Assembly (NCBI RefSeq): GCF_003044035.1
Contig: NZ_NVQC01000016.1
Coordinates: 60,001-92,000, forward strand
Direction: 5' to 3'
From: Candidatus Methylomirabilis limnetica
GTDB lineage: Bacteria > Methylomirabilota > Methylomirabilia > Methylomirabilales > Methylomirabilaceae
DNA length: 32,000 nucleotides
The notes under the pieces are model-generated. The model was not told the origin of the DNA and searched no databases. It saw only the letters and a program-made list of their open reading frames with translations. Both the position numbers and the translations under genes were made by a program. Positions 12,308 through 24,696 of this stretch are shown piece after piece. Positions within the stretch are counted from its first letter, which is position 1, and each line of letters starts with the position of its first letter.

Positions 12308-12531
12308 GTATCGCTCGTGCTTCCATTGCCCACCCTTTGTACTTATGACATAATGCCTGGTGTATCAGGATAGGAGAGTGCAGCGCGGCGGCTATGGATA
12401 GGCGGAGAGCCCTGTCCGCCGCCAGACGACAGTCCTGAAGAGACTAGTCGCATCCGGTCGGCGCTCATCGAAACAGGGTTGACTGTACGAGAAGGGTACT
12501 TGCTCTGAGTACGAGCACTGGAGAGAGGCAC

Positions 12532-12777
12532 ATGAGGCAAGTAGATCTAATGAAGCGCATTACGGCCAATCCGAGGATTTTGGGAGGGAAACCGATCATT
12601 CGCGGAACGCGGATTTCGGTAGAATTTATTTTGGAATTGCTTGCATCAGGGGCCACCGAACCCGAAATCTTACAAGACTACCCCCACCTGAAGTCGAACG
12701 ACATCATGGCATGCCTGCAGTATGCCGCCCGGTCTTCGCAGAACGAGATATACGTGGATCTGGAGAAGGTTGGGTGA
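12532..12777 (+). CDS. DUF433 domain protein (putative antitoxin)
   Basis: ITANPRILGGKPIIRGTRISVEFILELLASGATEPEILQDYPHL...DI.ACLQYA is the DUF433 signature. Its stop overlaps the GTG of the next ORF (GTGA). Confidence 0.85.
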   Translation: MRQVDLMKRITANPRILGGKPIIRGTRISVEFILELLASGATEPEILQDYPHLKSNDIMACLQYAARSSQNEIYVDLEKVG

Positions 12778-12998
12778 GGCCTGGTACGCTCAGGTTCTTG
12801 ACCGATGAGAATGTCTCGCCTCGCCTGGTCGCGCCCTATCTCCCCCCCCAAGCCTTCCGAGGCCAGCGTAACGAGCCGGCCCATCTCCTGCACACCGCCC
12901 AAGAGGTTGCTAAGCTCTTGAATATGCCGCCGACTGAGCTCGGCCGCCTCACCACCGACAACGCCCGCCGCCTGTTGCGACTCCCTCCATTGGAATAA
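12774..12998 (+). pseudogene. Chimeric ORF: first ~20 codons of a DUF5615-type (PIN-like) toxin fused in frame to a duplicated TatD C-terminus
   Basis: The N-terminus LRFLTDENVSPRLVA resembles a DUF5615 start. From PYLPPQAFRGQRNEPAHLLHTAQEVAKLLNM...RLPPLE* onward it copies the last 54 aa of TatD. Confidence 0.75.
12834..12998 (+). repeat. Diverged direct repeat of the tatD 3' end (partner 12143-12307)
   Basis: 165-nt colinear match by eye, with 8 of 54 encoded residues differing. Both copies end in ccattggaatga / ccattggaataa. Confidence 0.85.
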
Positions 12999-13010
12999 TT
13001 GTCAACTCAA

Positions 13011-13703
13011 TTACGAATTGGAATAGTGCACCCTTAGCGTAAACTCGCTCAGTAGAGTCCAACACTTATCGTTATTCTTGATCAGACCTTTTTCTTCCGT
13101 AGAGCTTACGAATACGAAGCCAAAATTAGTCTTCGTCCCAGTTGCCCACGCTTTGACCACATCGGTCACATCGATGCTGATTACGGAGCCCATAGGCTTC
13201 TCGGGGAGATCGTTCTTGTAAGGGTCTCCAGAAATGGTGTCTGGCGCCTTCGCGATCTCCACCTCGGGCATGCCATGCCATTCATCTTTCGCGAGCAAGA
13301 GCCTTAACGCACATAATTCTGGGAATCTTTTGTTCAGTGGCCTCACACCGCTCTTAATCGTGTAGTTCAGGGTAGCCTTGGTGACAGTCTTTGCCGGAGA
13401 CTCGTTCAGCGGATCCACATTGAATTTCACGGCGCCTCGGTAGATGTGATTCTGTATTCGCATACTAAAATCGTCAACCGTTCGAAAAAAGTGTTCCCAA
13501 CCCACTACAACGCCAACTGTTCCTTGTTTATAAAGCGCAATAGTCGCGTCTCCCGCCAATCCGACCTTGCCCTCACCCTGGAATTCAACATGATTGGAAC
13601 TTCCAACTTTTGTCGGCCCGGAAAGGTTGCTTTTGCAGGCGCCGAGCAACGGCAAAAGCACTAAAGCCAATAACATCCGTAGCCAAAATATTCTCATTTG
13701 CAT
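13011..13703 (-). CDS. Lipoprotein of unknown function, in a visibly AT-richer segment
   Basis: Signal peptide plus lipobox (LLPLLGAC). AAGGAG lies 7 nt upstream of the ATG. A C-terminal stretch ISIDVTDVVKAWATGTKTNFGFVF faintly resembles DNRLRE-type domains. Base composition differs clearly from the flanks. Confidence 0.7.
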   Translation of the reverse strand: MQMRIFWLRMLLALVLLPLLGACKSNLSGPTKVGSSNHVEFQGEGKVGLAGDATIALYKQGTVGVVVGWEHFFRTVDDFSMRIQNHIYRGAVKFNVDPLNESPAKTVTKATLNYTIKSGVRPLNKRFPELCALRLLLAKDEWHGMPEVEIAKAPDTISGDPYKNDLPEKPMGSVISIDVTDVVKAWATGTKTNFGFVFVSSTEEKGLIKNNDKCWTLLSEFTLRVHYSNS

Positions 13704-13736
13704 GTTTCATCTCCTTGATTTGCGAGAAGGATATTA

Positions 13737-13917
13737 TCGAGCATTGAGCAACACGCCGGCGTCAGTGAGCCGCCCGGCAAAGGCGGTGCTGGTGAACTGC
13801 GATCCCTGGTCGGAGGTGAAGAGCATCGGCGTCGCGATCGACATGGCTCGCTCCGCGCCGTCAGACAGAATCGGGTCTCCATCGCGATGGAGCTCTTCCG
13901 GGACAGCACGTCGCTGC
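13737..13917 (-). pseudogene. Fragment of an IS3-family (rve/DDE) transposase
   Basis: The minus-strand translation ...ILSDGAERAMSIATPMLFTSDQGSQFTSTAFAGRLTDAGVLLN matches the HSDxGSQ(F/Y)TS..F...L...G core of IS3 OrfB. Only ~60 aa remain, with no N-terminal or C-terminal parts. Confidence 0.65.
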
Positions 13918-13960
13918 TGGGCCAGTCTAGGCTCTCTGCCCCTGTTATACATATTACTCA

Positions 13961-14101
13961 GAGCATAAAATAGCTTACCCCCCTTTAGCAAAGGGGGGTA
14001 AGGGGGGTTTTGAACTATCGGTACAAACCCCCTCAATCCCCCTTTCGTAAAGGGGGAAGTTGCTGGAGATGTTGTGCGAGAGTGCAATCTATTTTATGCT
14101 C
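13961..14101. repeat. Small palindromic element with 13-bp perfect terminal inverted repeat enclosing REP-like hairpins
   Basis: gagcataaaatag (13961-13973) / ctattttatgctc (14089-14101). The interior holds ccccc-tttagcaaa-ggggg and ccccctttcgtaaaggggg hairpins. Confidence 0.7.
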
Positions 14102-14135
14102 CCCGTAATAACAATGTAGGTCATGTCCCGTTTAT

Positions 14136-14245
14136 CATTCCGGGCTCGACAAGCCTGCCCCGTACTTGATACGGGGGAATCCAGTTTCTCTCTGGTTTCC
14201 CGCTCCCGGCTTATAACGTGCCGGGACAGGCTTTGCGGGAATGAC
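14136..14245. repeat. MITE-like element, family cattccggg...gacaagcctgcccc...gcgggaatga (copy 1 of 3)
   Basis: tcattccgggctcgacaagcctgccccgtacttgatacggggg...ccgggacaggctttgcgggaatgac has imperfectly inverted ends. Related copies lie at 16334-16420 and 20267-20367. Confidence 0.7.
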
Positions 14246-14305
14246 GGACTTTGCGGTGATTAACCTCGCCGTGTTTAGAAAGCGTTGCCCGGCCTGTCTA
14301 AGCGC

Positions 14306-15295
14306 CTACGAGCGCCTGCCTAACAGTGTGAGACCATAGTGGGCGGCGCCGATCAGCGGCGTGCGTAGGTTCAATGAGACCTTCACTTCGATTGACTGAA
14401 GCAGTTCAGCGAAGCGCCCCTTGTCGGAGAAGGCATTGGTGAACGTGCCGTCTTGAAGTTTGGATAAAAGCTTCGGCGCGATCCCGCCACCGACATACAC
14501 CCCACCAATCGCGAGGGCCTTCAGGACCAGATTTCCCGCCTCTGCTCCGTAAATAGAGCAGAAAAGATCGAGCGCTTTCGTGCAGAGCAGGTCGTCCCCT
14601 GTCAGCCCGATCTCCGAAATCATGGCGCCAGGGTCATTCTCCGCGATCCGAGTTCGCAGCCACTCTGGCTCGGGGGCTATGCCGCTGTCCCGGAGGAACC
14701 GATAGATGTTGAAGAGCCCTGGACCGGACAGCACGCGCTCGTAGCTGACGCGGCCACGCTCCCGTTGCAGATAGCGGAGCAGGTCGATCTCCATGTCGCT
14801 GCGTGGGGCAAAGTCGGCGTGGCCGCCCTCAGTGGCCATGGGGTGATACCGCGCCCCGTCCCAGTACAGGATTGCCTCCCCCAGACCTGTCCCGGCTGCG
14901 ATGACGGCGATGTTCCCCTTTCGCTGAAGACCAGGTTGAAGCACACACAGGTCGGTCGGCTCGAGGTGGAGCATCCCGTAGGCTGCTGCTTCCAGATCGT
15001 TCAGGAGCTTCACTCGCGGAACGCGAAGGACTTCCGCCAGTCTGCGCTCATCCAACTCCCAGGGGAGGTTTGTGGCTTTACTCTGTCCTTCGATCACCGG
15101 TCCGGCCACCCCGAAGCAGGCCGCGTGTAGTGGCGGGCGAGATCCAGGTCCCATGAATTGATCCAGGACCGCCTCCAGCGACCCGTAACTCTGGCTGGGG
15201 AACGTTTCTTCACGGATGGCTTGCAGGCAAGTTGGCGTCTCCTCGAAGAGGCCGATAATGGTCTTCGTCCCACCGATGTCGCCAGCCAGGATCAT
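14306..15295 (-). CDS. glk: Glucokinase
   Basis: MILAGDIGGTKT, the AAGTGLGEA pattern (VIAAGTGLGEAIL), EGGH.DFAP, ER..SG.GL, GGVYVGGGIAPK. Confidence 0.92.
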   Translation of the reverse strand: MILAGDIGGTKTIIGLFEETPTCLQAIREETFPSQSYGSLEAVLDQFMGPGSRPPLHAACFGVAGPVIEGQSKATNLPWELDERRLAEVLRVPRVKLLNDLEAAAYGMLHLEPTDLCVLQPGLQRKGNIAVIAAGTGLGEAILYWDGARYHPMATEGGHADFAPRSDMEIDLLRYLQRERGRVSYERVLSGPGLFNIYRFLRDSGIAPEPEWLRTRIAENDPGAMISEIGLTGDDLLCTKALDLFCSIYGAEAGNLVLKALAIGGVYVGGGIAPKLLSKLQDGTFTNAFSDKGRFAELLQSIEVKVSLNLRTPLIGAAHYGLTLLGRRS

Positions 15296-16071
15296 GGGAC
15301 CTTCTCGCCGAGTCGGCTGGCGGCGGCCTGGTCAACAAGCCACAGCAATCGACCAGCTACCGGCCGGATGAGTTGGGCCGGGAGCCGCTCTGGGTCCGGC
15401 GGCCCTTCCAGAACTGCCTGGAGAACAGCGGCCTTCTCCCCTCCTGATACGAGGAACAGGATTGCTGACGCTCGATTGAGGATGGGTGGCGTCAGTGTCA
15501 GGCGATTCGTCTTCAGCTCAGGGATGTAGTTGGGCGCCACCCACCGCGTGGCCTCTTGAAGCGCGTGGGAGTACGGAAACAGCGAAGCGGTGTGACCGTC
15601 AGGCCCCAACCCCAGAAGAATAAGGTCGAACATCGGCGGCTCATCTGTTGGTCGTATCTCGAAAACCTTGGCGATTTCGGACTCGTACTCGCTGGCCGCC
15701 GCATCCAGGTCTGTCCGCTCGGCCTGCATCCGATGCACTTGGTTCGCGGGTATCGGAACGCGACTGAGCAGAGTAGCCCTTGCCATGCCGAAGTTCGAGT
15801 CCGGGTGCTCCGGCGGCGCCGCCCGCTCGTCGCCCCAGAAGATGTGAGTCCCTCGCCACGGCAGGCGAGTGCAGTACGGCTCAGCCGTCAGGAGCGAGTA
15901 GAGGCGCTTCGGGGTCGAGCCGCCTGCCAGGGCAACGGTGAAGCGTCCACAGCGGGCCACCGCCTTATCGGCGATCGCGACGACTTGCTTCGCGGCCTCC
16001 TGGGCGACAGCAGCGAAATCGGACACTACCAGTAGGTCGACCTCGTGCCTCAGTATCTGCCCGGTTTTCAT
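15292..16071 (-). CDS. pgl: 6-phosphogluconolactonase
   Basis: ALAGGSTPKRLY, W....IFWGDER, FDLILLGLGPDGHTASLFP, L.LT.P.L. It overlaps glk by 4 nt. Confidence 0.92.
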   Translation of the reverse strand: MKTGQILRHEVDLLVVSDFAAVAQEAAKQVVAIADKAVARCGRFTVALAGGSTPKRLYSLLTAEPYCTRLPWRGTHIFWGDERAAPPEHPDSNFGMARATLLSRVPIPANQVHRMQAERTDLDAAASEYESEIAKVFEIRPTDEPPMFDLILLGLGPDGHTASLFPYSHALQEATRWVAPNYIPELKTNRLTLTPPILNRASAILFLVSGGEKAAVLQAVLEGPPDPERLPAQLIRPVAGRLLWLVDQAAASRLGEKVP

Positions 16072-16114
16072 CGGTTCTGGGATCTCCCGACCTCCGCCTT
16101 TACCAATGGGTTCA

Positions 16115-16296
16115 GTAACTACTCAGGTGTTTAGGCTGTAGGCTGAAGGCTGTTAGCCATTGCGCATGGACCGAATCAAGAAGCCCAGAACCTTTTCGGT
16201 CTCCATCATGTTCGCGTCGCATTCTGAAAACGCCTGGCTCATCCGTGCGCGTTCCTACAGTCTAAAAGACTACAGTCTATCTACCTGAGTAGTTAC
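16115..16296. mobile_element. 182-bp miniature inverted-repeat element A with 8-bp target duplication and an internal relic of a four-helix-bundle (23S IVS protein/Avd family) gene tail
   Basis: TIR gtaactactcaggt / acctgagtagttac (14 bp perfect, ~29 bp imperfect). Subterminal heptamers (ctgtagg, ctgaagg / cctacag). Flanking direct repeat TGGGTTCA (16107-16114 and 16297-16304). The minus-strand relic reads ...FSECDANMMETEKVLGFLIRSMRNG*. Confidence 0.8.
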
Positions 16297-16333
16297 TGGG
16301 TTCATAAGTAACAAAACGTATCACAACTGTTTT

Positions 16334-16420
16334 GTCATTCCGGGCTTGACAAGCCTGCCCAGTACTTGATACTGGGGAATCCGGTGTATTCAGCCTGGAT
16401 CCCTGCTTGTGCGGGAATGG
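16334..16420. repeat. MITE-like element, cattccggg family (copy 2)
   Basis: gtcattccgggcttgacaagcctgcccagtacttgatactggggaat...cttgtgcgggaatgg. Confidence 0.65.
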
Positions 16421-16547
16421 CACGGTGTCGCCTGGCTTGTACACGCCTGACAATGTTGCTTCACGCAGGACTATGGAGAACCTACGCCTGCCGTATTGGC
16501 GTGTCAAGCAGATGATCGTGCCCCGGATGGGCGCAGCAGGCGGCCCC
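16421..16547 (+). repeat. Conserved ~127-nt block (copy 1; partner 20368-20496) preceding the promoter/leader module
   Basis: ggtgtcgcctg.cttgt.cac.cctga...gagaacctacgcctgccgt.ttggcgtgtcaa.cagat.atcgtgccccggatgggcg.agcaggcggccccc is shared by both copies with scattered substitutions. Confidence 0.7.
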
Positions 16548-16655
16548 CCACTTTTCCTTGACCGGGAGGGAGGGGGGGACGTTCTAATCTGCGCTGTCTG
16601 TGTGTGCCCCGGTTACTAGGCCGGGGCATGGAGCAACTTTCCTAGGAGGGAGTAG
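16548..16655 (+). promoter_or_regulatory. Promoter/leader module copy a (TTGACC, interrupted G-tract, TAATCT, stem-loop, AGGAGG)
   Basis: It aligns with 17797-17901 and 20646-20750. Here the G-tract reads GGGAGGGAGGGGGGG, putting 21 nt between TTGACC and TAATCT. Perfect 8-bp stem tgccccgg/ccggggca. Confidence 0.5.
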
Positions 16656-16724
16656 ATGCGACGAGAACGGAGGAGGGCTGTGAGCAGGGCGGTGCAGTGT
16701 CTGTTGGGAGGCGCGGCTCGGTGA
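16656..16724 (+). pseudogene. Truncated signal-peptide remnant, paralog of the collagen-repeat protein N-terminus
   Basis: MRRERRRAVSRAVQCLLGGAAR* compares with MRRGRRRAVSGAVQCLLGGAVLAMG... at 20751. Nucleotide homology ends near 16715. Confidence 0.75.
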
Positions 16725-16752
16725 GCTGCGTGGCCATGCGCGTTTCGCTGTT

Positions 16753-17052
16753 TCACCCTGCGGGCCTCTTCGCGTCGCGCGGTTCGAAGCTGATAAGCAA
16801 GCGCGATCCGGTCGCCTCCGCCAGACGCTCCAGCGTCCGCATCGATGGGTGCGTGCGTCCGCTTTCAAGACGGGCGACGACGGGCTGCGTCGTCCCCATC
16901 TTCCGGGCCAGCTCCTCTTGCGTTAGACCGGCGCGGTTCCTCACATCCATCACGGCCGAGGCCAGGACAAACTCTTTCTCAAGCGCCTCGTAAGCCTTCC
17001 GGTATTTCGGCTCTTTCATCCACTTCTTGTGTATGTCAGATATGCGTGCCAT
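16753..17052 (-). CDS. higA: XRE-family HTH antitoxin (HigA-like)
   Basis: 99 aa. The HTH is RAGLTQEELARKMGTTQPVVARLESG. It lies 13 nt downstream of the toxin gene (toxin-first order). Confidence 0.85.
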   Translation of the reverse strand: MARISDIHKKWMKEPKYRKAYEALEKEFVLASAVMDVRNRAGLTQEELARKMGTTQPVVARLESGRTHPSMRTLERLAEATGSRLLISFEPRDAKRPAG

Positions 17053-17065
17053 TGCTACACCTCCA

Positions 17066-17404
17066 TCAGTGAACCGATTTCGCGCGGGACAAGGCCAGAT
17101 CTATCTCGCGGCGCGGCGTTTTCTCTGTGCTCTTCACGAAGACCCGCACGATTACCACGCGCCGGCCCACGGCCGTCACATACAGCGCCCGCGAAATTCC
17201 GCTGCGGCCTTTCAGCCGCACCTCCCACAGCCGACCTTCCACATGCTTGACGTGCGGCTCGCCTACACGCTCCAGACCCTTGTCCTCGATGAGCTTCGCG
17301 ATACGCGCTAGCCTCGCCCGCATGTCTTCAGGCAAGGCCTCAACCTCCGCGTCAACGGTTTCATTGAGGGTTTCGACCGTCCAGCGCATACCAGAATATA
17401 CCAC
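17066..17404 (-). CDS. higB: RelE/ParE-superfamily toxin, phage Gp49-like (HigB-like)
   Basis: Pattern: V..E...LP.D.RARL.R...L.E.G......PHVKHVEG.LWE.R.....GI.RALYV...GRRVVI.RVF.KS.KTPRREI.LA. The true start may be ATG 17389 rather than GTG 17404. Confidence 0.85.
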   Translation of the reverse strand: MVYSGMRWTVETLNETVDAEVEALPEDMRARLARIAKLIEDKGLERVGEPHVKHVEGRLWEVRLKGRSGISRALYVTAVGRRVVIVRVFVKSTEKTPRREIDLALSRAKSVH

Positions 17405-17406
17405 AA

Positions 17407-17418
17407 AAGATATATCTT
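17407..17418. promoter_or_regulatory. 12-bp perfect palindrome AAGATATATCTT immediately upstream of higB (candidate operator / -10 region)
   Basis: Self-complementary AT-rich dodecamer 3 nt upstream of the toxin ORF. TA operators are typically palindromes overlapping the promoter. Confidence 0.45.
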
Positions 17419-17463
17419 GGGAAGCCCTGATGTCAGGGTGCGTTCGGCGATCATGGGTGCGTA

Positions 17464-17605
17464 GTAACTACCCAGGTGTTTAGACTGAAGGTTCTAAATT
17501 ATCTCGCAAGGCACGAATCGAGCCATTCAAGACCTTTTCGGAGTTTTGTATGATCACGCATGACTTACCCCTAAAAGCCTTCAGCCTATCTACCTGAGTA
17601 GTTAC
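17464..17605. mobile_element. 142-bp miniature inverted-repeat element B (same family and orientation as A) with 8-bp target duplication
   Basis: TIR gtaactacccaggt / acctgagtagttac. Flanking direct repeat GGTGCGTA (17456-17463 and 17606-17613). The minus-strand relic reads ...CVIIQNSEKVLNGSIRALRDN... Confidence 0.8.
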
Positions 17606-17796
17606 GGTGCGTAGAAGAAAGACCGCCGTCAGGCCTACTTCTCTGTCAATCCCGGCTATTGCTACAAACAACTGCTTGATACGCACGTCGTTCTCTCGTG
17701 CAGCGGTCGTATGCCCGGTGCGCCGGGCTGCACAGGTGCTTCCGGCCACGACCTGTCCGCGTGCGGACACACATCGGGAGGCGCAGGCGGCCCCGC

Positions 17797-17901
17797 ACTT
17801 TCCCCTTGACCGGGGGGGGTGCGTTCTAAGCTGCGCTGTCTTTGTGTGTCCCGGTGACCAGGCCAGGACAGGGCAGCAACCTTTACCATAAGGAGGTAAC
17901 A
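17797..17901 (+). promoter_or_regulatory. Promoter/leader module copy d (TTGACC-G8-...TAAGCT, stem-loop, AGGAGG)
   Basis: cactttccccTTGACCggggggggtgcgttcTAAGCTgcgctgtctttgtgtgtcccggtgaccaggccaggaca...aAGGAGGtaacaATG. There are 15 nt between the hexamers. Confidence 0.5.
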
Positions 17902-18690
17902 ATGCGACGACTACGCTGGGGACTGCTGATCGGAGTGCTCGGAGTGACGGTCGTGGTGGCGACCCCGCCACCGTCAGAGGCCGCCCAATGCGCCCCCGAC
18001 ACGGTGCCGTCTGGCAACAGTTGCATCGACCGGTACGAAGCCAGCGTCTGGCAGACCACCAACCCGGGCCTCATTCGCCTGATCAAGTTGGGCCGCGTGA
18101 CCCTGGCGCGGCTCACTGCAGCCGGCGCGACCCCGCTCGGGCTCGCCGCTGGGGACCTGGTCGCCGCCGGCTGCCCGACCACCGGTAACGGCTGCACAAA
18201 CGTCTACGCCGTCTCGATCCCCGGGGTGGAGCCAGCCCATGACCTCACCTGGTTCCAGGCGGCCGCCGCAGCCCGCAACGCTGGGAAACGCCTGCCGACC
18301 AATGCCGAGTGGCAGGCCGCCGCGCTGGGGACCCCGGATACGGGTGGAGCCGACAACGGCACGACCACGTGCAACACCGACAATCTGGCTCCCGGTGTGA
18401 CGCCCACCGGCTCCCGGTCGGCGTGCGTCTCCGATGTGGGGGCCTTCGACATGGTGGGGAACCTCTGGGAGTGGGTGGCCGACTGGGTGCCGCTCAGCAC
18501 GATCTGCGTCACCGGTTTGTTCGGAACGGGTGATGCGAACTGCCTGGCCGGAGCGAGCACCTTGAACGGCCCGGGCGCGCTGATCCGCGGCGGCGACTTC
18601 TTCGGCTCGGTTGCCGGCGTCTTCGCGGTGGCTGGCGACAACGCCCCGTCGGGCGCGTTCGGCCGCGTCGGGTTTCGTGCCGCCCGCTAG
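17902..18690 (+). CDS. Secreted FGE/SUMF1-type C-type-lectin-fold protein with DGR variable-region-like C-terminus
   Basis: The start is taken at ATG 17902, after AGGAGG. Signal peptide MRRLRWGLLIGVLGVTVVVATPPPSEA. Motifs CIDRYEASVW, AGKRLPTNAEWQAAALG, DMVGNLWEWVADW, and the end RGGDFFGSVAGVFAVAGDNAPSGAFGRVGFRAAR*. Confidence 0.85.
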   Translation: MRRLRWGLLIGVLGVTVVVATPPPSEAAQCAPDTVPSGNSCIDRYEASVWQTTNPGLIRLIKLGRVTLARLTAAGATPLGLAAGDLVAAGCPTTGNGCTNVYAVSIPGVEPAHDLTWFQAAAAARNAGKRLPTNAEWQAAALGTPDTGGADNGTTTCNTDNLAPGVTPTGSRSACVSDVGAFDMVGNLWEWVADWVPLSTICVTGLFGTGDANCLAGASTLNGPGALIRGGDFFGSVAGVFAVAGDNAPSGAFGRVGFRAAR

Positions 18691-18796
18691 TCGTCTGTTT
18701 TTGATACTTTGATACTTTGCACATTGACGTCCTCGTCGGCGGGCGGCCGGGGTTGGCCGCTCGCCGGTGAGGACCAGGGCCGGCGTCTCGCTATGC

Positions 18797-18897
18797 CTCC
18801 TTCTCCCTTCCCCCCCGTGTGGGGGAAGGTGAGGATGGGGGGTGAATTCAGCGACGGCCCCCCACCTTAATCCTCCCCCGCAAGGGGGGAGGAACGC
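18797..18897. repeat. Two REP-like GC hairpins inserted between the conserved avd upstream sequence and the avd start
   Basis: ccttccccc/.../gggggaagg (18806-18829) plus gtgagg, and tcctccccc/gcaag/gggggagga (18871-18893). This segment is absent from the paralogous site at 21855-21875. Confidence 0.75.
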
Positions 18898-18912
18898 TGG
18901 GTGAGGGGACCG

Positions 18913-19668
18913 ATGGCCGACGACGTCATCCCGATCGTGCAGCGGCCCTACGATTTCGCCGTGGCGCTGTACGGCTACGTGAACCGCTTTCCGCGCATGC
19001 ACAAGCTGCTCCTCGGGCGAGAACTCATGGGGCTGGCGCTCCGGCTCCTCGTCACGCTGGTGACGGCCAACCGCCGACGCGACAAAGTCCCGGAGTTGGA
19101 AGAGGCCAGCGGCGTGGTCGATGCGCTGCGCATCACGCTTCGGTTGAGCATGCGCCTGGGTCTGCTCAGTCACAAAGGATACGAGGCGCTGTCGCGAGAC
19201 CTGGACGAGATCGGCCGCATGCTCGGGGGCTGGCTCAAGCACAGCGCCGCAGCGGGCGCAGAGACGACCGAGGGTCCGCCAAGGACTCCCGACGATAGGC
19301 TGAGGAGGCGTCGGCAGATGGGCGGGCGCCAACGGGGCCTGCCTCCGTCTGTCTGCCAAGGCCCTCGATCTCCCGATGTCCTGTTTCGAATCGCCGCCGG
19401 TCAGCGCGCTCGCTGCAAGACCATCCAGATCACCGGCGCCTCCGCTGAGGTCATCCGCGCTAAACTGTCCGGTATCATCGAGCGGCCAAGCCACTGTTCT
19501 CCTGCTTCCAGCGAGCACTCTTCATTCTCTATGCATGCCGGCGCGGAGCGTATTGACAAGCCCCTCGGCCTGTTCCAGCGATGTGCGAACGTCCTGTTCC
19601 GTTATCCTGGTAGTCGCGATCAATGGATAGCGCTCCACCAGATAGAATGCAGAAATCTTTTGACATAA
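18913..19668 (+). CDS. avd: Avd-like four-helix-bundle protein (DGR accessory variability determinant family) with an aberrant C-terminal extension
   Basis: The first ~115 aa read IPIVQRPYDFAVALYGYVNRFPRMHKLLLGRELMGLALRLL...DALRITLRLSMRLGLLSHKGYEALSRDLDEIGRMLGGWLKH, the Avd/23S-IVS-protein pattern. The frame then stays open to 19668 through non-homologous sequence and overlaps the HEPN gene antisense, so the native 3' end is probably lost. Confidence 0.7.
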   Translation: MADDVIPIVQRPYDFAVALYGYVNRFPRMHKLLLGRELMGLALRLLVTLVTANRRRDKVPELEEASGVVDALRITLRLSMRLGLLSHKGYEALSRDLDEIGRMLGGWLKHSAAAGAETTEGPPRTPDDRLRRRRQMGGRQRGLPPSVCQGPRSPDVLFRIAAGQRARCKTIQITGASAEVIRAKLSGIIERPSHCSPASSEHSSFSMHAGAERIDKPLGLFQRCANVLFRYPGSRDQWIALHQIECRNLLT

Positions 19669-19917
19669 TTCGCGGAAGCCTGCAAGACCGGGATCGAAGG
19701 CCATCGCGTCATCTAAGAGGGCCTCCAAGTCGTGGATACGCCGAAGTTGCCAACCCTTGGACAGCAGAAATGCCTTGAGAAACTTTTCCACCCCCTTGCT
19801 GAAGGCAAAATCCCGCCATCTCGGGATCGTCGTTTTAAGCATCCGCTCCACCCGTCCCAGGTCTTTCTCCGCGATACGCAGCCAATCGACGGCGTAGGGA
19901 GATTCCTCACGCGGCAT
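19522..19917 (-). CDS. HEPN domain protein (toxin of HEPN/MNT pair)
   Basis: MPREESPYAVDWLRIAEKDL...FLKAFLLSKGWQLRRIHDLEALL (R-x-x-H-D-L HEPN motif)...YLVERYP. ATG 19917 overlaps the MNT 3' end by 11 nt. Confidence 0.85.
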   Translation of the reverse strand: MPREESPYAVDWLRIAEKDLGRVERMLKTTIPRWRDFAFSKGVEKFLKAFLLSKGWQLRRIHDLEALLDDAMAFDPGLAGFRELCQKISAFYLVERYPLIATTRITEQDVRTSLEQAEGLVNTLRAGMHRE

Positions 19918-20239
19918 AGAGGACCTCTCCTTTATTGAAGATTTCCTTGATGAATTGGTCGCCAACAGCCAGCCGCTTTTCGATCTCGTCTGGCGTGAGC
20001 ACGATAGCCTCCAGCGGCACTGACGGATGAGTCCCTGTGAGAATGCGTTTTACCGCCATCCAGCGATCGATGAAGCGCTCCGGCGTCTCTTTGATGATGA
20101 GCAGATCGATGTCGCTGTCCGGTCCTGGGGCGCCATAGGCATACGAGCCAAACAGAATCACCTGCTTGGGAGCGTACTCAGCGACAAGCTTGTTCACAAT
20201 GATCTGGATGAGTGTCCGTATGTCGTGTGACGTGGTCAT
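19907..20239 (-). CDS. Minimal nucleotidyltransferase (MNT antitoxin of HEPN/MNT pair)
   Basis: ILFGSYAYGAPGPDSDIDLLII is the GS-x10-DxD polymerase-beta-type NTase motif. The start is taken at ATG 20239. The ORF-track TTG 20275 is possible but less likely. Confidence 0.85.
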   Translation of the reverse strand: MTTSHDIRTLIQIIVNKLVAEYAPKQVILFGSYAYGAPGPDSDIDLLIIKETPERFIDRWMAVKRILTGTHPSVPLEAIVLTPDEIEKRLAVGDQFIKEIFNKGEVLYAA

Positions 20240-20266
20240 CGCATGAACCCGCGTACTCCTAAGGTC

Positions 20267-20367
20267 GCTTGACAAGCCTGCCCCGTACTTGAAACGGGGG
20301 TATTCAGTGTTTCCGGCTAGGATTCCCGCTCCCAGCTTAAGGCATGCGAGGACAAGCGCGGGAATGA
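20267..20367. repeat. MITE-like element, cattccggg family (copy 3, left end truncated)
   Basis: gcttgacaagcctgccccgtacttgaaacggggg...gacaagcgcgggaatgat. Confidence 0.6.
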
Positions 20368-20496
20368 TATGGTGTCGCCTGACTTGTGCACTCCTGAAAA
20401 AGTCGCACCACGCGCGACTAGGGAGAACCTACGCCTGCCGTTTTGGCGTGTCAATCAGATTATCGTGCCCCGGATGGGCGTAGCAGGCGGCCCCCA
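20368..20496 (+). repeat. Conserved ~127-nt block, copy 2
   Basis: It aligns with 16421-16547. It is followed by a ~150-nt insertion (20497-20645) that is absent in copy 1. Confidence 0.7.
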
Positions 20497-20645
20497 CCCA
20501 AGCACAGCGAGAGATTTCGCCATCACTCGATGCTTCCCGTCAATGCGGGCTCCCGGAGGGCGCGTGGTACGCTCAGTGCAATTATGAGCGATTACTTCAT
20601 TTCGTTCGCAATGGCAACGTTCTCTTGCTGTTCTTGAGCCCTCGC

Positions 20646-20750
20646 ACTTTTCTATTGACCGGGGGGGGGTGCGTTCTAAGCTGCACTCTCTGTGTGTGTC
20701 TCGGCTACCAGGCCGGGGCTGGGAGTAACCTTTACTAGGAGGAGGCAGCG
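20646..20750 (+). promoter_or_regulatory. Promoter/leader module copy b (TTGACC-G9-...TAAGCT, stem-loop, AGGAGGAGG)
   Basis: cacttttctaTTGACCgggggggggtgcgttcTAAGCTgcactctctgtgtgtgtctcggctaccaggccggggct...AGGAGGAGGcagcgATG. There are 16 nt between the hexamers. Confidence 0.5.
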
Positions 20751-21404
20751 ATGAGACGAGGACGGAGGAGGGCCGTGAGCGGAGCGGTGCAGTGTCTGTT
20801 GGGAGGCGCGGTGCTCGCAATGGGCCTGACGGGGCTGGCGAGCAACATCGAAGCGGCGGATATCAATGCGTGCGTCAACGAGGTGAATGGGTTGGTCCGG
20901 ATCGTTGCGCCGGGTACCGTGTGCAAGCCTGTCGAAACGGCCATGACTTGGAATAGCACAGGGCCGGCAGGTGCGACAGGTGCGGCAGGACCAGTAGGCG
21001 CAGCGGGACCAGCAGGGCCGGCTGGACCTGAGGGCCCGCCGGGTCCGGCCGGCTCGGGCAGCCAGATGGTGCGCGATCTCGCTCGATTTGCGGTGCCGCA
21101 GGTAGCTCCTCTCGAGTCGATCACCCTGGCCGACCTGCCCGAGCTCACGGCGATGATCGGCAAGGACGCCACCCTCACGACCGTCGCATCCCGCAACGTG
21201 ATCCTGCAGTTGTCAGCCAGCACGACCGAGTTCGACTACCGGCGGCTGTTGCTCGCCTGGATCGGGGCCCCGTCCATGGTCGGAGGAGCCCTTTCCTGGC
21301 CGATCAGGATCGAGCACTCAGGCACCAACACCGAATACAGTCGCCCGTCCTCCTCTTCGACAGAGATGCTCGAACTGGTCGTCGTCGCCAGCGCGACTGA
21401 GTGA
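20751..21404 (+). CDS. Secreted protein with collagen-like (G-X-Y)n triple-helix repeat and uncharacterised C-terminal domain
   Basis: Arg-rich signal peptide, then INACVNEVNGLVRIVAPGTVCKPVETAMTWNSTGPAGATGAAGPVGAAGPAGPAGPEGPPGPAGSGS, then ~110 aa with no motif I recognise. Confidence 0.8.
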   Translation: MRRGRRRAVSGAVQCLLGGAVLAMGLTGLASNIEAADINACVNEVNGLVRIVAPGTVCKPVETAMTWNSTGPAGATGAAGPVGAAGPAGPAGPEGPPGPAGSGSQMVRDLARFAVPQVAPLESITLADLPELTAMIGKDATLTTVASRNVILQLSASTTEFDYRRLLLAWIGAPSMVGGALSWPIRIEHSGTNTEYSRPSSSSTEMLELVVVASATE

Positions 21405-21574
21405 CGACCAACCCTTAGCCCGGATCCACCGAACGTCTTCGCCTGACAGGTCGATGACGGATACGGGGAGACGATCGACCCCGATCGAGGTCATGGCCAA
21501 GCCCTGAGCGGGGCGAACGAGGGTCGGAGGACGGCCAAAGCATATTGCCCATATGGCTGCGAGGCGATACCCCC

Positions 21575-21790
21575 TTCCACCGCCCATGAATCTACAGGAC
21601 GACGAACTCCTCTACCCCCTCGATTCAGGATATGGGTAGAGATCATCGTCGTGCTCACGTCGCTAGGACCGGCACCGTGTCTGCACCGTGCGGATGTCGT
21701 CTCCATCCTCCCCCAGTGGGTCGCAAAGGCATGGCGGCAGGTGAGAACGGCACTAGCCTGCCCTCGCTTGGTCTGGCTCCCGCTGCCTCA
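21575..21790 (-). pseudogene. Frameshifted C-terminal relic of an IntI-like (integron-integrase-type) tyrosine recombinase
   Basis: The minus strand reads LTCRHAFATH, then (shifted frame) LGEDGDDIRTVQT, then [28 protein letters not shown]. The canonical sequence is H.[48 protein letters not shown]. The catalytic Tyr is replaced by Ser and the N-terminal three quarters are absent. Confidence 0.7.
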
Positions 21791-21874
21791 GGAGCCGCCG
21801 GAGCAGCTTGCCTGTGCCAGGGCCGCCGGGGTAGGCCGCTCGCCGGTGAGGACGCCCGCCCGGTGGGGGCAGAG

Positions 21875-22012
21875 ATGGCCGACGCGGTCATCCCGATCGT
21901 GCAGCGGGCCTACGATTTTGCTGTGGCGCTGTACGGCTACGTGAACCGCTTTCCGCGCATGCACAAGCCGCTCCTCGGGCGAGAACTCATGGGGCTTACG
22001 ATACTGAATTGA
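21875..22012 (+). pseudogene. Truncated second copy of the Avd-like gene (first ~40 codons)
   Basis: MADAVIPIVQRAYDFAVALYGYVNRFPRMHKPLLGRELMGL, then unrelated sequence and a stop. The nucleotide match to 18742-19033 includes the upstream ggccgctcgccggtgagga. Confidence 0.8.
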
Positions 22013-22112
22013 GCGTGTCGCATGCGCTGGATCAGGGAGGGGATGAAAGATACATCCATGAGGGAGCAGAAAGACCCCGCGCTGCGATGAGGTGGTTGAC
22101 ACCTGGGGCCCG

Positions 22113-23708
22113 TTATGGGTTGACCCACTCCCGGCCGTCGGCCTCGATGAAGCGGTCGGCCTCTTTTGGGCCCCAGTTGCCGGCGGGGTAGTATGCCAGG
22201 CCGGTGCGGCCGTCGGCGGCCCAGGCTTCGACCACTGGCGTCACCATCGCCCATGCAGCCTCAACCTCATCACGCCGAATGAACAGCGTCGAATCCCCGA
22301 GCATACAGTCCAGCAGTAGCCGCTCGTAGGCCTCCTCGGGATCGACCCCGAAGGCCTCCCGGTAGGAGAAGCCCAATCGGGCCGGCACCAGGCTGATTCG
22401 CGGTCCAGGTGGCTTGAGCCCCACCCGCAACGAGATTCCCTCGTCGGGCTGGATTCGAAGGGTGAGTCGGTTTGGCTTCACGATGTCCTGGTTCTTATGG
22501 CCCGCATGGGCCGCCTGTTGAAACAAGAGGAGAGGTGGCTGTCGGTATTGGATGGTGACCTCGGTGACCCGCTTCGGGAGCGCCTTACCGGTCCGCAGAT
22601 AGAACGGCACCCCCGCCCAGCGCCAGTTGTCGATCTCCAGGCGCAGTGCCACGAAGGTCTCCATCGCCGTCTCTGCCGCAACCTCGGGCTCGTCGGCATA
22701 GGCCGCGATCTTCTTCCCGCGAAGCTGGCCGCTGATATACTGTGCCCGGACAGTTGTGTCGTTGGCGCGCTCTGCCGGGACGGGACGGATCGCCCGCAAG
22801 ACCTTGACCTTCTCGTCGCGGACCGCGTCAGGCTCGAAAGTGGCGGGCGGCTCCATGGCCACCAGCGACAGGAGCTGCAGCATGTGGTTTTGCACCATGT
22901 CCCGCATGGCGCCCGCGGTATCGTAGTAGCTGCCTCTACCCTCCACGCCCAGGTCCTCCGCAACGAGGAGCTGGACGTGGTCGACATACCGACGGTTCCA
23001 CAACGGTTCGAAGATGCTGTTGCCGAAGCGGAAGGTGAGGATGTTCTGGACGGTTTCCTTTCCGAGGTAGTGGTCGATGCGGTACACCTGCTGCTCGCGG
23101 AAGACCCGATGGATCTCGGCATTCAGGACCAGAGCCGTGGCTAGATCCCGTCCGAATGGTTTTTCGACGATGATCCGGCAACAGCCGTGAGCCTCTGGCG
23201 CAGGATCAGTGTCGTGCGGACCGTCCCAGACCTTGCTCACCAGTCCGGAGGCCCCCAGACGAGTCACAACTGCAGCGTAGGCCGCGGGGGGTGTGGCCAG
23301 GTAATAGAGCCGATTGCCGCCGGTTCCGTGCTGGCGATCCACGTCAGCGAGGAGGAGCCGGAGCCGCTCGTACCCGGCAGAGTCATCGAATGAGGCCGCG
23401 ACATAGTAGAGGCTCCGCGCCAGGCGGTCCCACACCTCCGCATTGAGCGGGTGAAGACGAGAAAACTGCTCCACCGCCCCGCGCATCTCATCGCGGAACG
23501 CTTCGTGGTCCTTCTCTCGTCTCGCGAACCCGATCACCGCAAACCGGTCAGGGAGCAGGCCGTCGTGCGCCAGCGCGTACAGGGCGGGCAAGAGCTTGCG
23601 CCTGGTCAGGTCGCCGGATGCGCCGAAGATGACCAACGCACACCCGTCCGGCACCTGGTAGCGGGAGGGTTGAGCGATCGCCTCGGTCAGGATCTGCGTG
23701 AGAGCCAT
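22113..23708 (-). CDS. zwf: Glucose-6-phosphate 1-dehydrogenase
   Basis: LVIFGASGDLTRRKLLPALY, RIDHYLGKE, VQNIL.FRF.N, EKPFG. The start is taken at ATG 23708, after GGAGGA. The ORF-track 23888 start would add 60 non-conserved residues overlapping gnd. Confidence 0.95.
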   Translation of the reverse strand: MALTQILTEAIAQPSRYQVPDGCALVIFGASGDLTRRKLLPALYALAHDGLLPDRFAVIGFARREKDHEAFRDEMRGAVEQFSRLHPLNAEVWDRLARSLYYVAASFDDSAGYERLRLLLADVDRQHGTGGNRLYYLATPPAAYAAVVTRLGASGLVSKVWDGPHDTDPAPEAHGCCRIIVEKPFGRDLATALVLNAEIHRVFREQQVYRIDHYLGKETVQNILTFRFGNSIFEPLWNRRYVDHVQLLVAEDLGVEGRGSYYDTAGAMRDMVQNHMLQLLSLVAMEPPATFEPDAVRDEKVKVLRAIRPVPAERANDTTVRAQYISGQLRGKKIAAYADEPEVAAETAMETFVALRLEIDNWRWAGVPFYLRTGKALPKRVTEVTIQYRQPPLLLFQQAAHAGHKNQDIVKPNRLTLRIQPDEGISLRVGLKPPGPRISLVPARLGFSYREAFGVDPEEAYERLLLDCMLGDSTLFIRRDEVEAAWAMVTPVVEAWAADGRTGLAYYPAGNWGPKEADRFIEADGREWVNP

Positions 23709-23712
23709 TGAG

Positions 23713-24696
23713 TTATCCTCCGGTAGGACGTTCGGTATGTCCGCCGAACTGCTGCCGCATCGCCGACAGCAGCTTCTCGGCGAATGTATGCGCCCGTCTG
23801 GACCGGAAGCGCGCGTACAGCGACGCCGAGAGCACATCGGCCGGCACTGCCTCTTCAATAGCCGCCATGATCGTCCAGCGTCCCTCACCGGAATCCTGGA
23901 CGAACCCGGTATAGTTCGATAACGTGGGGTCTTCAGCGAGCGCCATCGCCGTCAGGTCGAGTAACCACGATGAAACGACGCTGCCGCGCCGCCACACTTC
24001 CGCAACATCAGCCACGTTGAAGTTGTAACGGTACTCCTCAGGGAGGTCCTGTGAGATCGCATTGCGTAGGATGTCGAAGCCTTCCGCATAGGCTTGCATC
24101 AGGCCGTACTCAATGCCGTTGTGAACCATCTTGACGAAATGGCCAGCGCCCGCCGGGCCGCAGTGCAGGTAGCCATCCTCCGCCGTGCCGCCTAACTTCT
24201 CGCGGCCTGGGGTACGCGGGATGTCGCCCAATCCCGGTGCGAGCGTCTTGAAGATCGGCTCCAGATGTGCGACCGCGTGCGCTTCCCCGCCGATCATCAG
24301 GCAGTAGCCGCGTTCCAACCCCCAGACCCCGCCGCTGGTGCCCACATCCACGTACTGGATATCCCGCTCTTTTAATGCTCTCGCGCGGCGCACATCATCT
24401 TTGTAATAGGAATTGCCGCCGTCGATGATGATGTCGTCCGCGTCCATCCGCTGTGAGAGCGCCATGATGGTCTGCTCCGTTGGGTCTCCCGCCGGCACCA
24501 TCACCCACGCCACCCGCGGCCTGGTGAGGGCGCGCACGAACTCGTCCAGCGACATGGCAGCCGTTGCGCCTTCCTGTGCTAATGCCCCCACGTGGTCGGG
24601 ATTCACGTCGAACACGACGCACTCATGCCCACCGCGCAGCAGGCGGCGGACTATGTTTGCGCCCATCCTGCCCAGACCGATCATTCCGAGTTGCAT
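23713..24696 (-). CDS. gnd: 6-phosphogluconate dehydrogenase (decarboxylating), short Gnd-like form
   Basis: [19 protein letters not shown] Rossmann N-terminus, [33 protein letters not shown]. The start ATG 24696 is preceded by GAGGAG. Confidence 0.92.

Follow-up and report, generated by a model that had tools for sequence, protein, structure and literature searches.

Between pgl and zwf, the 32,000-nt stretch of Candidatus Methylomirabilis limnetica DNA analyzed here (the window) probably preserves a decayed diversity-generating retroelement (DGR), a bacterial element for protein hypermutation, of a clade in which Avd is fused to a MutS-like (MSL) domain, with a variable region (VR) that is now frozen. 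Most likely, the locus is a genomic fossil of the ordinary sort, with no novel system behind it. The original prediction had left the choice between a decayed DGR and a target-plus-avd cassette served in trans by a template repeat (TR) and reverse transcriptase (RT) encoded elsewhere; of the two, decay is favored by the truncation of the first avd copy, by the stub of a second copy, and by the static VR. The assignment to DGRs as such is borne out by adenine-specific mismatches between the VR and the TR on L100, a metagenome contig that is closely related, by the Pfam score of the Avd domain, and by a conserved hairpin downstream of the VR.

The target gene (NCBI CLG94_04885; 17902-18690, plus strand) is an intact ORF of 262 amino acids, combining a putative signal peptide, read from its MRRLRWGLLIGVLGVTVVVATPPPSEA sequence, with an FGE-sulfatase/C-type-lectin fold. 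Its C-terminus reads ...RGGDFFGSVAGVFAVAGDNAPSGAFGRVGFRAAR*. Pfam FGE-sulfatase (PF03781) covers residues 110-262 (E=3.3e-17), and the ORF matches two solved DGR variable proteins in the PDB, TvpA (2y3c, E=1.2e-5) and TaqVP (5vf4), in agreement with its earlier description as a secreted protein of this fold. More than 3600 homologues exist, several with proven VR/TR pairs, and dN/dS of the target outside the VR is 0.29-0.51. Immediately 5' of the gene lies a promoter-like and 5'UTR-like leader repeat (copy c, 17783-17901, plus strand), which is 78-81% identical to 16536-16664 and 20640-20759 and 91% identical to the DNA upstream of a collagen::FGE target on L095, a sister-strain contig; it contains a conserved TTGACC...TAAGCT and a 5'UTR hairpin. 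A scan of 16000-22200 with promoter and terminator consensus sequences gave no excess over shuffles.

The tail of the target (18574-18695, plus strand), at the 3' end of the gene and ending at the stop codon, can be read as a genuine DGR VR because its mismatches to the L100 TR (GGCGCGCTGATCCGCGGCGGCAACTGGAACAACGACACGAATGCCGGCGTCTTCGCGGTGAATGGCAACAACACCCCGTCGAATGCGAACAACAACATCGGGTTCCGCGCCGCTCGC) concentrate on TR adenines: 22 of 26 fall at such positions, with 28 adenines in the 122 TR columns (hypergeometric P=4.7e-15). The remainder consists of four non-A mismatches, to which one 3-nt deletion is added. At the syntenic locus of L095, the VR differs from the L100 TR at adenines only. The RT-linked TR of L105 was considered as the cognate TR and ruled out by 15 non-A mismatches. 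As had been counted before, exactly 4 adenines occur in the 97 nt of 18591-18687; 97-nt windows with no more than 4 make up 0.07% of the 32 kb, and all of them lie within 18584-18825. The VR scaffold given in the original prediction (RGG-x6-AGVFA-x4-NAPS-x6-GFR) was slightly off. Its RGG, AGVFA, PS, and GFR elements recur in the translated clade TR (RGG-NWNNDTN-AGVFAV-NGNNT-PS-NANNNI-GFRAAR), whereas the N and A of NAPS are variable positions; the first variable block of the target is one codon shorter than in the clade TR. All assemblies found to carry the VR have it in identical form. The target's 90% cluster comprises one protein sequence from 4-5 contigs, which come from at least 3 samples and agree at 99.97-100% of their DNA; the VR is apparently frozen now.

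Between the stop codon and a GC-rich inverted repeat lies a conserved (TTTGNNNN)x3 motif (18700-18719, plus strand), in which every T and G is unchanged across an alignment of 11 clade loci. The inverted repeat itself (18729-18774, plus strand), presumed to be the DGR target-recognition hairpin, has a 20-bp stem of 17 Watson-Crick and 3 G-T pairs and a 6-nt loop. A hairpin is predicted at the same place in every one of the 11 clade loci, with differing outer-stem sequences and a conserved core, in which 4 of 10 pairs show compensatory changes. Motif and hairpin likewise follow the target stop codon in 10 related loci, and together they are 94% identical to L095, compared with 68% for the gene body. 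In the Bordetella phage BPP-1 the hairpin stem is short; the stem described here is much longer, at 20 bp, and stands about 40 nt past the stop codon.

The ORF downstream of the target, previously suspected to be Avd-like, begins at 18913, 222 nt past the target stop. Its first part, avd1 (18913-19273, plus strand), is a complete Avd four-helix domain, with a bAvd (PF22296) match at residues 8-110 that covers positions 3-106 of the 107-position profile and scores 61 bits (E=1.8e-16), above the Pfam cut-off of 40; a profile of avd homologues matches the bAvd structure 4dwl (E=0.017). Compared with the clade's Avd::MSL fusion, avd1 is truncated at its 3' end. Its DNA is 92.6% identical to the L100 Avd::MSL gene over 269 nt, and the homology ends at 19273, exactly where the MSL domain should begin; the match of the clade AVD HMM ends at position 145 of 191. 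The missing module, in clade members a C-terminal MutS-domain-I-like domain with the sequence GGVRYxMTSPxVERYLRAKL..., was found in none of the six frames of the 32-kb window with an MSL HMM. Values of dN/dS for avd1 are 0.20-0.31 (against L010, L100, and avd2).

What is the remainder of the avd reading frame? The full ORF has 251 amino acids, on which Pfam detects bAvd alone, and its read-through tail (19274-19668, plus strand) has no homologue, finds no match in related loci, and overlaps the 3' end of a HEPN gene in antisense. The idea that the stretch '...ITGASAEVIRAKLSG...' is a diverged MSL remnant is rejected by the MSL HMM, and DNA homology is already over at 19273. The claim that the avd frame runs on into a HEPN/MNT module was a strand error: HEPN and MNT are encoded by the minus strand, and the avd frame merely stays free of stops until 19668.

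Further downstream are parts that the original prediction did not include. Positions 21862-21996 are 92.6% identical to 18900-19034 and contain a second, truncated avd copy (avd2, 21875-21996, plus strand) that retains the first ~41-45 codons (AVD HMM positions 2-45, E=2.3e-18) and breaks off 117 nt short of the zwf stop codon (22113). Just 5' of it lies the right half of a second post-VR hairpin (21820-21853, plus strand), 94% identical to 18741-18774 and lacking its left arm. The ancestral residues A4, A12, and P32 are retained by avd2 and changed in avd1; of the avd1 residues, P12 and L32 are unusual substitutions at conserved positions.

The place expected for MSL, TR, and RT is occupied by a predicted toxin-antitoxin pair, HEPN (19522-19965, minus strand; PF05168, E=6.7e-17) and an MNT nucleotidyltransferase (19907-20275, minus strand; NTP_transf_2, PF01909, E=1.4e-10), whose genes overlap at 19907-19965. 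The avd1-HEPN/MNT junction also occurs in L095, where it is further deleted. It is followed in the window by a full-length leader (copy d, 20267-20750, plus strand; 76-82% identical to 16344-16716) and a collagen-repeat ORF (20751-21404, plus strand), a remnant of a second target that is missing its FGE domain and VR. The N-terminal ~100 residues of this ORF are homologous to collagen::FGE DGR targets; there is a weak Pfam Collagen match, 44% identity to P0006 over residues 38-101, and a full-length counterpart, P0071, at the syntenic site in L095. On the other side of the target gene, leader copy b with the truncated 5' end of a collagen-type gene (16331-16716, plus strand) and a HigB(Gp49)/HTH toxin-antitoxin pair (16753-17404, minus strand; Gp49, E=2.5e-24; HTH_3, E=1.4e-15) add to the mosaic debris left of this pgl-zwf insert. 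An integron array of repeat-flanked toxin-antitoxin cassettes was also considered; the long inverted repeats at 16100-16311 and 17453-17620 show, by eye, no RYYYAAC or GTTRRRY attC core sites.

Neither TR nor RT was found in the 32 kb, as had been stated before. An A-tolerant ungapped scan of both strands for a TR gave a best non-self match of 100/151, equal to background, and a six-frame HMM scan that detects the TRs of related loci was likewise empty. No large ORF of the window carries Pfam RVT_1, and a six-frame scan with an HMM built from 72 clade RTs, which recovers whole and fragmented RTs in related loci, gave no match at E<1e-5. Beyond the window, none of the 120 best RT homologues, which reach down to 41% identity to the clade RT, bears the name Methylomirabilis, in a database that does carry named M. 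limnetica proteins, and about 2 kb of new sequence obtained by extending the contig via NorB and MoaC holds no RT. A protein search, lossy enough to have missed the window's own 251-aa Avd ORF, found the stub P0157 as the only further Avd of M. limnetica. Scanning genome contigs with the VR scaffold pattern GCCGGCGTCTTCGCGGTG-N15-CCGTCG gave matches in three unrelated MAGs but failed to recover the VR of M. limnetica, and so carries no information on this genome; the same scan picked out a locus with two matches in an Oligoflexales MAG, where avd and RT are present as well, which suggests that the approach works. With Rfam, the window as a whole had no match at gathering score, and 13900-22200 had none that was credible at E<=1; the window has no tRNA or tmRNA genes.

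Intact members of the clade follow the order target, Avd::MSL fusion, TR, RT (L015, L018, L019, L020, L024, L007), and an RT match is present in the fetched DNA at about 66 of 71 related avd loci. Decay is common in the clade, as L007 carries a degraded cassette (a frameshifted target, avd, and an RT in three fragments) adjoining an intact DGR, and at L008, L010, L096, and L099 a target is accompanied by an avd that is truncated or frameshifted, and no RT was seen. L100 has a 5'-truncated Avd::MSL with its TR, comes from a different sample than M. limnetica, and fits the sister-strain VR perfectly, not that of the window. In the sister strain itself, glk and pgl are 89% identical to the window, and the pgl-zwf site of L095 holds an 82-nt avd1 fragment, HEPN/MNT, a leader, a full collagen::FGE target, and the hairpin. 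By this synteny, L095 appears to be the complementary decay product, retaining the opposite half of an ancestral tandem pair.

We propose the following model for the origin of the locus. The ancestor would have had two tandem cassettes, each with a leader, a secreted FGE/CLec target with its VR, (TTTGNNNN)x3, the hairpin, and avd, and both would have shared one TR-RT located 3' of the second avd. Mutagenic retrohoming from the shared TR would have given rise to the adenine-specific substitutions in the VR of the ORF at 17902-18690. The M. limnetica lineage may later have lost the MSL domain of avd1 through rearrangements linked to toxin-antitoxin cassettes and to the repeated leader modules, by which the second target would also have lost its FGE domain, its VR, and the left arm of its hairpin; the last loss would be that of avd2 from codon ~45 through MSL, TR, and RT, and no TR-RT would survive elsewhere in the genome. 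Left over are an intact secreted lectin-fold protein with a frozen VR, probably still expressed, an Avd-domain ORF with a nonsense tail, and the avd2 stub.

Decay is favored because avd1 is cut exactly at the expected start of the MSL domain, because the avd2 stub, 117 nt from zwf, stands where MSL, TR, and RT are expected, and because RT-bearing avd loci predominate among relatives (about 66 of 71); the identity of the VR in all assemblies found, the absence of a Methylomirabilis name among the best 120 RT homologues, and the complementary product at the same site in L095 argue in the same direction. Against decay, avd1 preserves its Avd domain in an intact reading frame (dN/dS 0.2-0.3), and since its junction with HEPN/MNT predates the split from L095, avd1 has long stayed open without an adjacent TR-RT of its own. 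The intact target gene, the conservation of the (TTTGNNNN)x3 motif and hairpin (94%, against 68% for the gene body), and the recurrence of RT-less target-plus-avd loci in several genomic contexts also weigh against it.

An orphan cassette, in which a TR-RT elsewhere in the M. limnetica genome uses the local Avd domain, VR, (TTTGNNNN)x3, and hairpin, is an arrangement that we consider unlikely. Remote DGR targets are documented, and avd-TR-RT works in trans from a plasmid, according to the account in Wu et al. 2017 (PMC5758913). The intact Avd domain (dN/dS 0.2-0.3), the strongly conserved cis elements, and the recurrence of target-avd pairs without RT agree with service in trans, and the 5'-truncated Avd::MSL and TR of L100 show that complementary half-genes exist in the population; the remote unit might possibly carry such a truncated gene, so that the accessory function is split over two loci. 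A split DGR of this particular kind, with the 5'-truncated avd of the TR-RT unit complemented by an Avd domain travelling with the remote target, is more doubtful still. Points against service in trans are the identity of the VR across all assemblies found, its 3-nt deletion and four non-A mismatches to the closest TR, and the RT homologue search, and the sole other M. limnetica Avd recovered by the protein search is the stub P0157. In addition, the avd2 stub beside zwf looks like a simple deletion of MSL, TR, and RT, and L100 stems from another sample and matches the sister-strain VR instead.

Improbable, too, is a domesticated remnant, in which TR and RT are gone and the frozen target and Avd domain have each been kept for RT-independent roles, for example as a secreted lectin of fixed specificity and a nucleic-acid-binding protein. 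The intact target ORF with its signal peptide and shared promoter-like leader, the dN/dS values of the target outside the VR (0.29-0.51) and of avd1 (0.2-0.3), and the stand-alone family members of M. lanthanidiphila, with no DGR parts within 10 kb, are consistent with such roles, but we know of no RT-independent function of Avd, pairwise dN/dS mostly reflects the time of active DGR, and the avd ORF drags a 130-aa nonsense tail. Moreover, it is the dead avd2 stub that is free of the unusual P12 and L32 carried by avd1. That no DGR was ever involved, and an ordinary FGE-sulfatase-family protein with a VR-like C-terminus by common fold lies beside an unrelated four-helix protein, is next to inconceivable. 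The RGG...GFR frame is indeed common to the whole family, and high GC alone depresses adenine content and favors NNC codons, but the adenine-specific mismatch pattern against the L100 TR (P=5e-15) refutes this reading; the bAvd match lies above the Pfam gathering score, and the post-VR motif and hairpin are shared with loci that hold TR and RT. Decay of a formerly active DGR remains our preferred explanation.

What is the relevance of such a locus? In the literature library that was searched, no paper links DGRs and Methylomirabilis, and the window locus is apparently the first of DGR origin to be reported from this NC10 methanotroph. As it stands, it is the expected kind of genomic fossil, and it offers a clean natural example of DGR death in which TR and RT would be lost first, via rearrangements next to toxin-antitoxin cassettes, while target gene, cis-elements, and Avd domain persist and the halves of a formerly tandem pair survive in complementary fashion in sister strains. 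The lesson for annotation is that target and avd without RT do not warrant the call of an active DGR, and that a VR-like tail may be a frozen relic. Were the locus served in trans after all, it would extend the known DGR architectures; in a split DGR, one RT could serve several target-avd cassettes, in contexts like those of L008, L010, L096, and L099.

Canonical avd-containing DGRs, such as mtd-avd-TR-brt of the Bordetella phage BPP-1 and Architecture B as outlined in Wu et al. 2017 (PMC5758913), share with the window locus a C-type-lectin/FGE-fold target with a 3' VR, adenine-specific VR/TR differences, a GC-rich inverted repeat 3' of the VR, and an avd directly after the target; unlike them, the window locus has no TR or RT, and its avd is truncated. 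The intact relatives resemble the MSL-containing Architecture D of the same account in pairing a MutS-domain-I-like module with Avd. However, MSL is described there as a separate small gene, whereas in the clade Avd and MSL form one fused ORF of about 230 aa (L015, L018, L019), and the window copy has no part of MSL. For remote targets, such as the Treponema denticola TvpA paralogues, the defining feature is a TR at another site of the same genome that matches them (PMC5758913), and the window locus is similar to these in having a VR-bearing target without adjacent TR-RT and a protein detectably similar to TvpA (2y3c). Where that source defines remote targets, it mentions no avd beside them; the window target is accompanied by avd, and a cognate-like TR for its VR is present only on the related contig L100. 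Also comparable is L007 (Ga0394879_0006164), a member of the clade that shares the tandem layout and carries a degraded cassette that adjoins a toxin-antitoxin insertion, but which, unlike the window, keeps one complete unit of target, Avd::MSL, toxin-antitoxin genes, TR, and RT.

The window comes from the chromosome of Candidatus Methylomirabilis limnetica. Pfam matches to its large ORFs identify housekeeping genes on the plus strand (modABC-like transporters, moaC, selA, tmk, holB, metG and tatD) and on the minus strand (glk, pgl, zwf, gnd, pgi and tal, with a NorB-like oxidase after them). An insert of about 6 kb separates pgl (15292-16071, minus strand) from zwf (22113-23888, minus strand). 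It is pieced together from repeated modules, toxin-antitoxin pairs and parts of a diversity-generating retroelement (DGR). The original prediction had recognized a DGR-derived locus here, correctly and from a real observation. Its target gene (ORF 17902-18690, plus strand; target 1), whose product is identical to NCBI CLG94_04885, had been called FGE-type, and Pfam bears this out with an FGE-sulfatase match (E=3.3e-17); the ORF also matches TvpA and TaqVP, DGR variable proteins of known structure. The tail does hold only 4 adenines in 18591-18687, the window's most A-poor stretch. That it is a genuine variable region (VR) emerges from comparison with the template repeat (TR) of L100, a 1044-nt contig: 26 mismatches separate this TR from window 18574-18695, and 22 of them fall at TR adenines (hypergeometric P=4.7e-15, with 28 A in 122 columns); the other 4 mismatches lie at non-A positions, and there is one deletion of 3 nt. 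The L100 TR encodes HGALIRGG-NWNNDTN-AGVFAV-NGNNT-PS-NANNNI-GFRAAR*, against which the VR scaffold proposed earlier is essentially right, except that the first variable block here is one codon short and the 'NA' of 'NAPS' is variable.

The ORF starting at 18913 (avd1) is, as had been proposed, an Avd gene, matching bAvd above the Pfam gathering score (61 bits vs 40), and its Avd domain is intact, with dN/dS of 0.2-0.3. The idea that the avd frame runs on into a HEPN/MNT module had to be abandoned: HEPN and MNT sit on the minus strand, and the frame stays stop-free until 19668, giving an antisense overlap with HEPN. DNA homology between avd1 and the Avd::MutS-like (Avd::MSL) ORF of L100, which is 92.6% identical to window 19005-19273, stops at 19273; the match to the Avd HMM weakens within the linker, and an HMM scan found no MSL in any frame of the window. 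In the space expected to hold MSL, TR and reverse transcriptase (RT) there are instead some 250 nt of unique sequence and, on the minus strand, the HEPN/MNT pair. The reported lack of TR and RT in the window stands: a two-strand scan tolerant of adenine mismatches and a six-frame HMM search able to recognize the TRs of related loci as VR-like peptides both found no TR, and neither Pfam nor the RT HMM of the clade found an RT. Toxin-antitoxin modules of differing families (HEPN/MNT, DUF4258/DUF4926, DUF433 and BrnA) lie directly 3' of avd in five loci (window 19522-20275, L007 13902-14700, L010 3166-3794, L096 9882-10004 and L095 2933-3382), in L007 leaving the DGR undestroyed. The post-avd site may be an insertion hot-spot, or may merely reflect TA-rich genomes.

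On contig L007, which carries the Avd homologue P0138 and is a more distant relative than L100, a DGR from this family is intact, in the order target, avd, DUF4258/DUF4926 pair, TR and RT, with VR/TR mismatches almost confined to TR adenines. An Avd-alignment scan of JGI metagenomes yielded 80 loci, and purpose-built HMMs of the target, Avd, MSL and RT were run against all six reading frames of these. In the nearest group (L015, L018-L020 and L024) the target is followed by a fusion of Avd with a MutS-domain-I-like module in one ORF (about 230 aa); a TR begins some 10 nt past the stop of this ORF, and an RT lies about 200 nt beyond. Fusion ORFs lie at L015 1959-2650, L018 1952-2650, L019 2941-3630 and L100 75-686, the last with the TR next to it. 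An RT match is present in the fetched DNA of about 66 of the 71 loci having an Avd match, and most of the loci lacking one (L022, L023, L032, L037 and L082) have their avd within a few hundred nt of a contig end. The clade shows frequent decay: beside its intact DGR, L007 has decayed pieces (frameshifted target, avd, and RT in three pieces), and L008, L010, L096 and L099 have a target and a damaged avd without RT. In L105, a related DGR, a DUF559/MTES_1575 endonuclease-like ORF (1298-1723) replaces avd between target and TR-RT.

Beyond the target stop, an (TTTGNNNN)x3 motif (18700-18719, plus strand) and then a GC-rich hairpin with a 20-bp stem (18729-18774, plus strand) occur in 11 of 11 aligned clade loci, those sharing the motif's position with the window being L095, L099, L008, L010, L007, L018, L019, L020 and L024. 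A GC-rich inverted repeat 3' of the VR is a DGR feature described in the passages of Wu et al. 2017 (PMC5758913) consulted. The motif has a period of 8 nt, its T and G positions being invariant in the 11 loci; it may be a protein-binding site of this DGR clade, and we found no description of it in the literature passages covered. Between this hairpin and avd1, an insert of ~117 nt (18775-18895) with short G/C-tract hairpins (CCTTCCCCCCCGTGTGGGGGAAGG, CCTCCCCCGCAAGGGGGGAGG) is present in the sister strain L095 and absent from copy 2, and similar REP-like hairpins occur near 1029-1119 (region 1026-1119). A leader module, ~545 nt at its longest, is repeated in four full or partial copies (14131-14244, 16331-16716, 17783-17910 and 20267-20811; also L095 4058-4215). 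Its 3' ~125 nt, directly 5' of target 1, the collagen-type ORF and the L095 collagen::FGE target, contain TTGACC...TAAGCT, the conserved hairpin CCCGGTGACCAGGCCGGG and AGGAGG-ATG, and look like a shared promoter and 5'UTR. The module had no Rfam match and turned up in none of the more distant loci.

A second avd fragment (avd2; 21875-21996, plus strand), unnoticed in the original prediction, lies 3 kb downstream of avd1, comprises about the first 41-45 codons and is separated from the zwf stop by 117 nt; the right arm of a second hairpin (21820-21853, plus strand) is 94% identical to copy 1. Upstream of this remnant, a collagen-repeat ORF (20751-21404, plus strand) has the same leader as target 1. 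Over its N-terminal ~100 residues it matches collagen::FGE proteins of the target family, but it has lost the FGE domain and VR. L095, whose sample also contains the window genotype, is syntenic with the window, at 89% identity in glk/pgl. Beyond pgl, 82 nt from inside avd1 (window 19160-19241) are joined to a 5' part of HEPN and MNT; the avd1-HEPN/MNT junction is older than the window/L095 split. There follow the leader, a full-length collagen::FGE target (P0071) with VR, the (TTTGNNNN)x3 motif, the hairpin and the contig end, and inside this VR differences from the L100 TR fall at adenines only. In the simplest history, an ancestor would have had two tandem target cassettes and one shared TR-RT, cassette 1 then being lost in L095 and the business end of cassette 2 in the window. 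Target 1 and L095 target 2 share 68-69% identity in the gene body, climbing to 87% immediately ahead of the VR; non-adenine sites of the VR reach ~96%, and the stretch between stop codon and hairpin 94%, as expected if one TR rewrote both VRs.

We propose that the locus is probably a DGR of ordinary kind that has decayed, leaving its variable protein frozen. The truncations argue for this, namely the end of avd1 homology, the missing MSL-TR-RT, the missing FGE domain and VR of target 2 and the avd2 stub close to zwf, as does the frequent decay in the clade. The 90% cluster of target 1 points the same way, with a single member sequence on 4-5 contigs (99.97-100% DNA identity between assemblies) from at least three samples. 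Counted against decay are the intact Avd domain, the age of the avd1-HEPN/MNT junction, the well-conserved post-VR cis-elements, and L100, whose 5'-truncated Avd::MSL with TR demonstrates that such a form exists in related populations. A target/avd cassette served in trans by a TR-RT elsewhere in the genome is in our estimate unlikely. For decay it also counts that no Methylomirabilis-named protein appeared among the 120 best clade-RT homologues, in a database where M. limnetica proteins do carry names, though by a demonstrably lossy protein search. A VR-scaffold scan of genome contigs lacked a positive control, as it did not pick up the M. limnetica VR either. A domesticated remnant is a variant that we regard as about equally unlikely.

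Other parts of the window carry further repeats and insertions. Two related elements of ~150-210 nt (16100-16311 and 17453-17620) bracket a HigB(Gp49)/HTH pair (16753-17404); they are long imperfect inverted repeats, with 45-nt arms at 16100-16144 and 16267-16311, and inspection by eye found no attC core sites in them. The 3' end of tatD is duplicated as a 170-nt direct repeat (12143-12312 and 12834-13003, 86-88% identical), between whose copies a DUF433 gene (~12532-12777, placed from the L103 gene table) is a further cassette insertion with flanking duplication. The low-GC (0.51) segment 13011-14087, with minus-strand ORFs 13011-13703 and 13734-14087 (no Pfam match for either), is possibly a mobile or repeated element; 13009-13527 is 96% identical to L095 but inverted relative to glk, and the ENA contig L001 stops at 14037. 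The tmk/holB junction (7539-7645) carries tandem repeats of a heptamer-like unit, GTTTCGA(G), which make up an inverted repeat pair of 31 nt with 87% complementarity. The NorB-like protein adjoining the pentose-phosphate operon (28020-30242, 740 aa) combines a NorB cytochrome-c-like domain with COX1; the proposed NO dismutase belongs among the NorB-like proteins of Methylomirabilis.

How does the locus compare with known systems? RT and TR, two features that define a complete DGR, were not found in the window, and we therefore file the locus as a DGR remnant or possible remote target, not as a DGR. It derives from an avd-containing DGR and would work like one. The Avd::MSL fusion seen in the intact relatives, outside the window, is a minor architectural variant that we did not find described in the literature passages covered. 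As far as the consulted parts of Wu et al. 2017 (PMC5758913) go, the relatives of the locus group with the MSL-bearing 'Architecture D', in which MSL is a separate accessory gene, whereas the intact relatives carry it as an Avd::MSL fusion.
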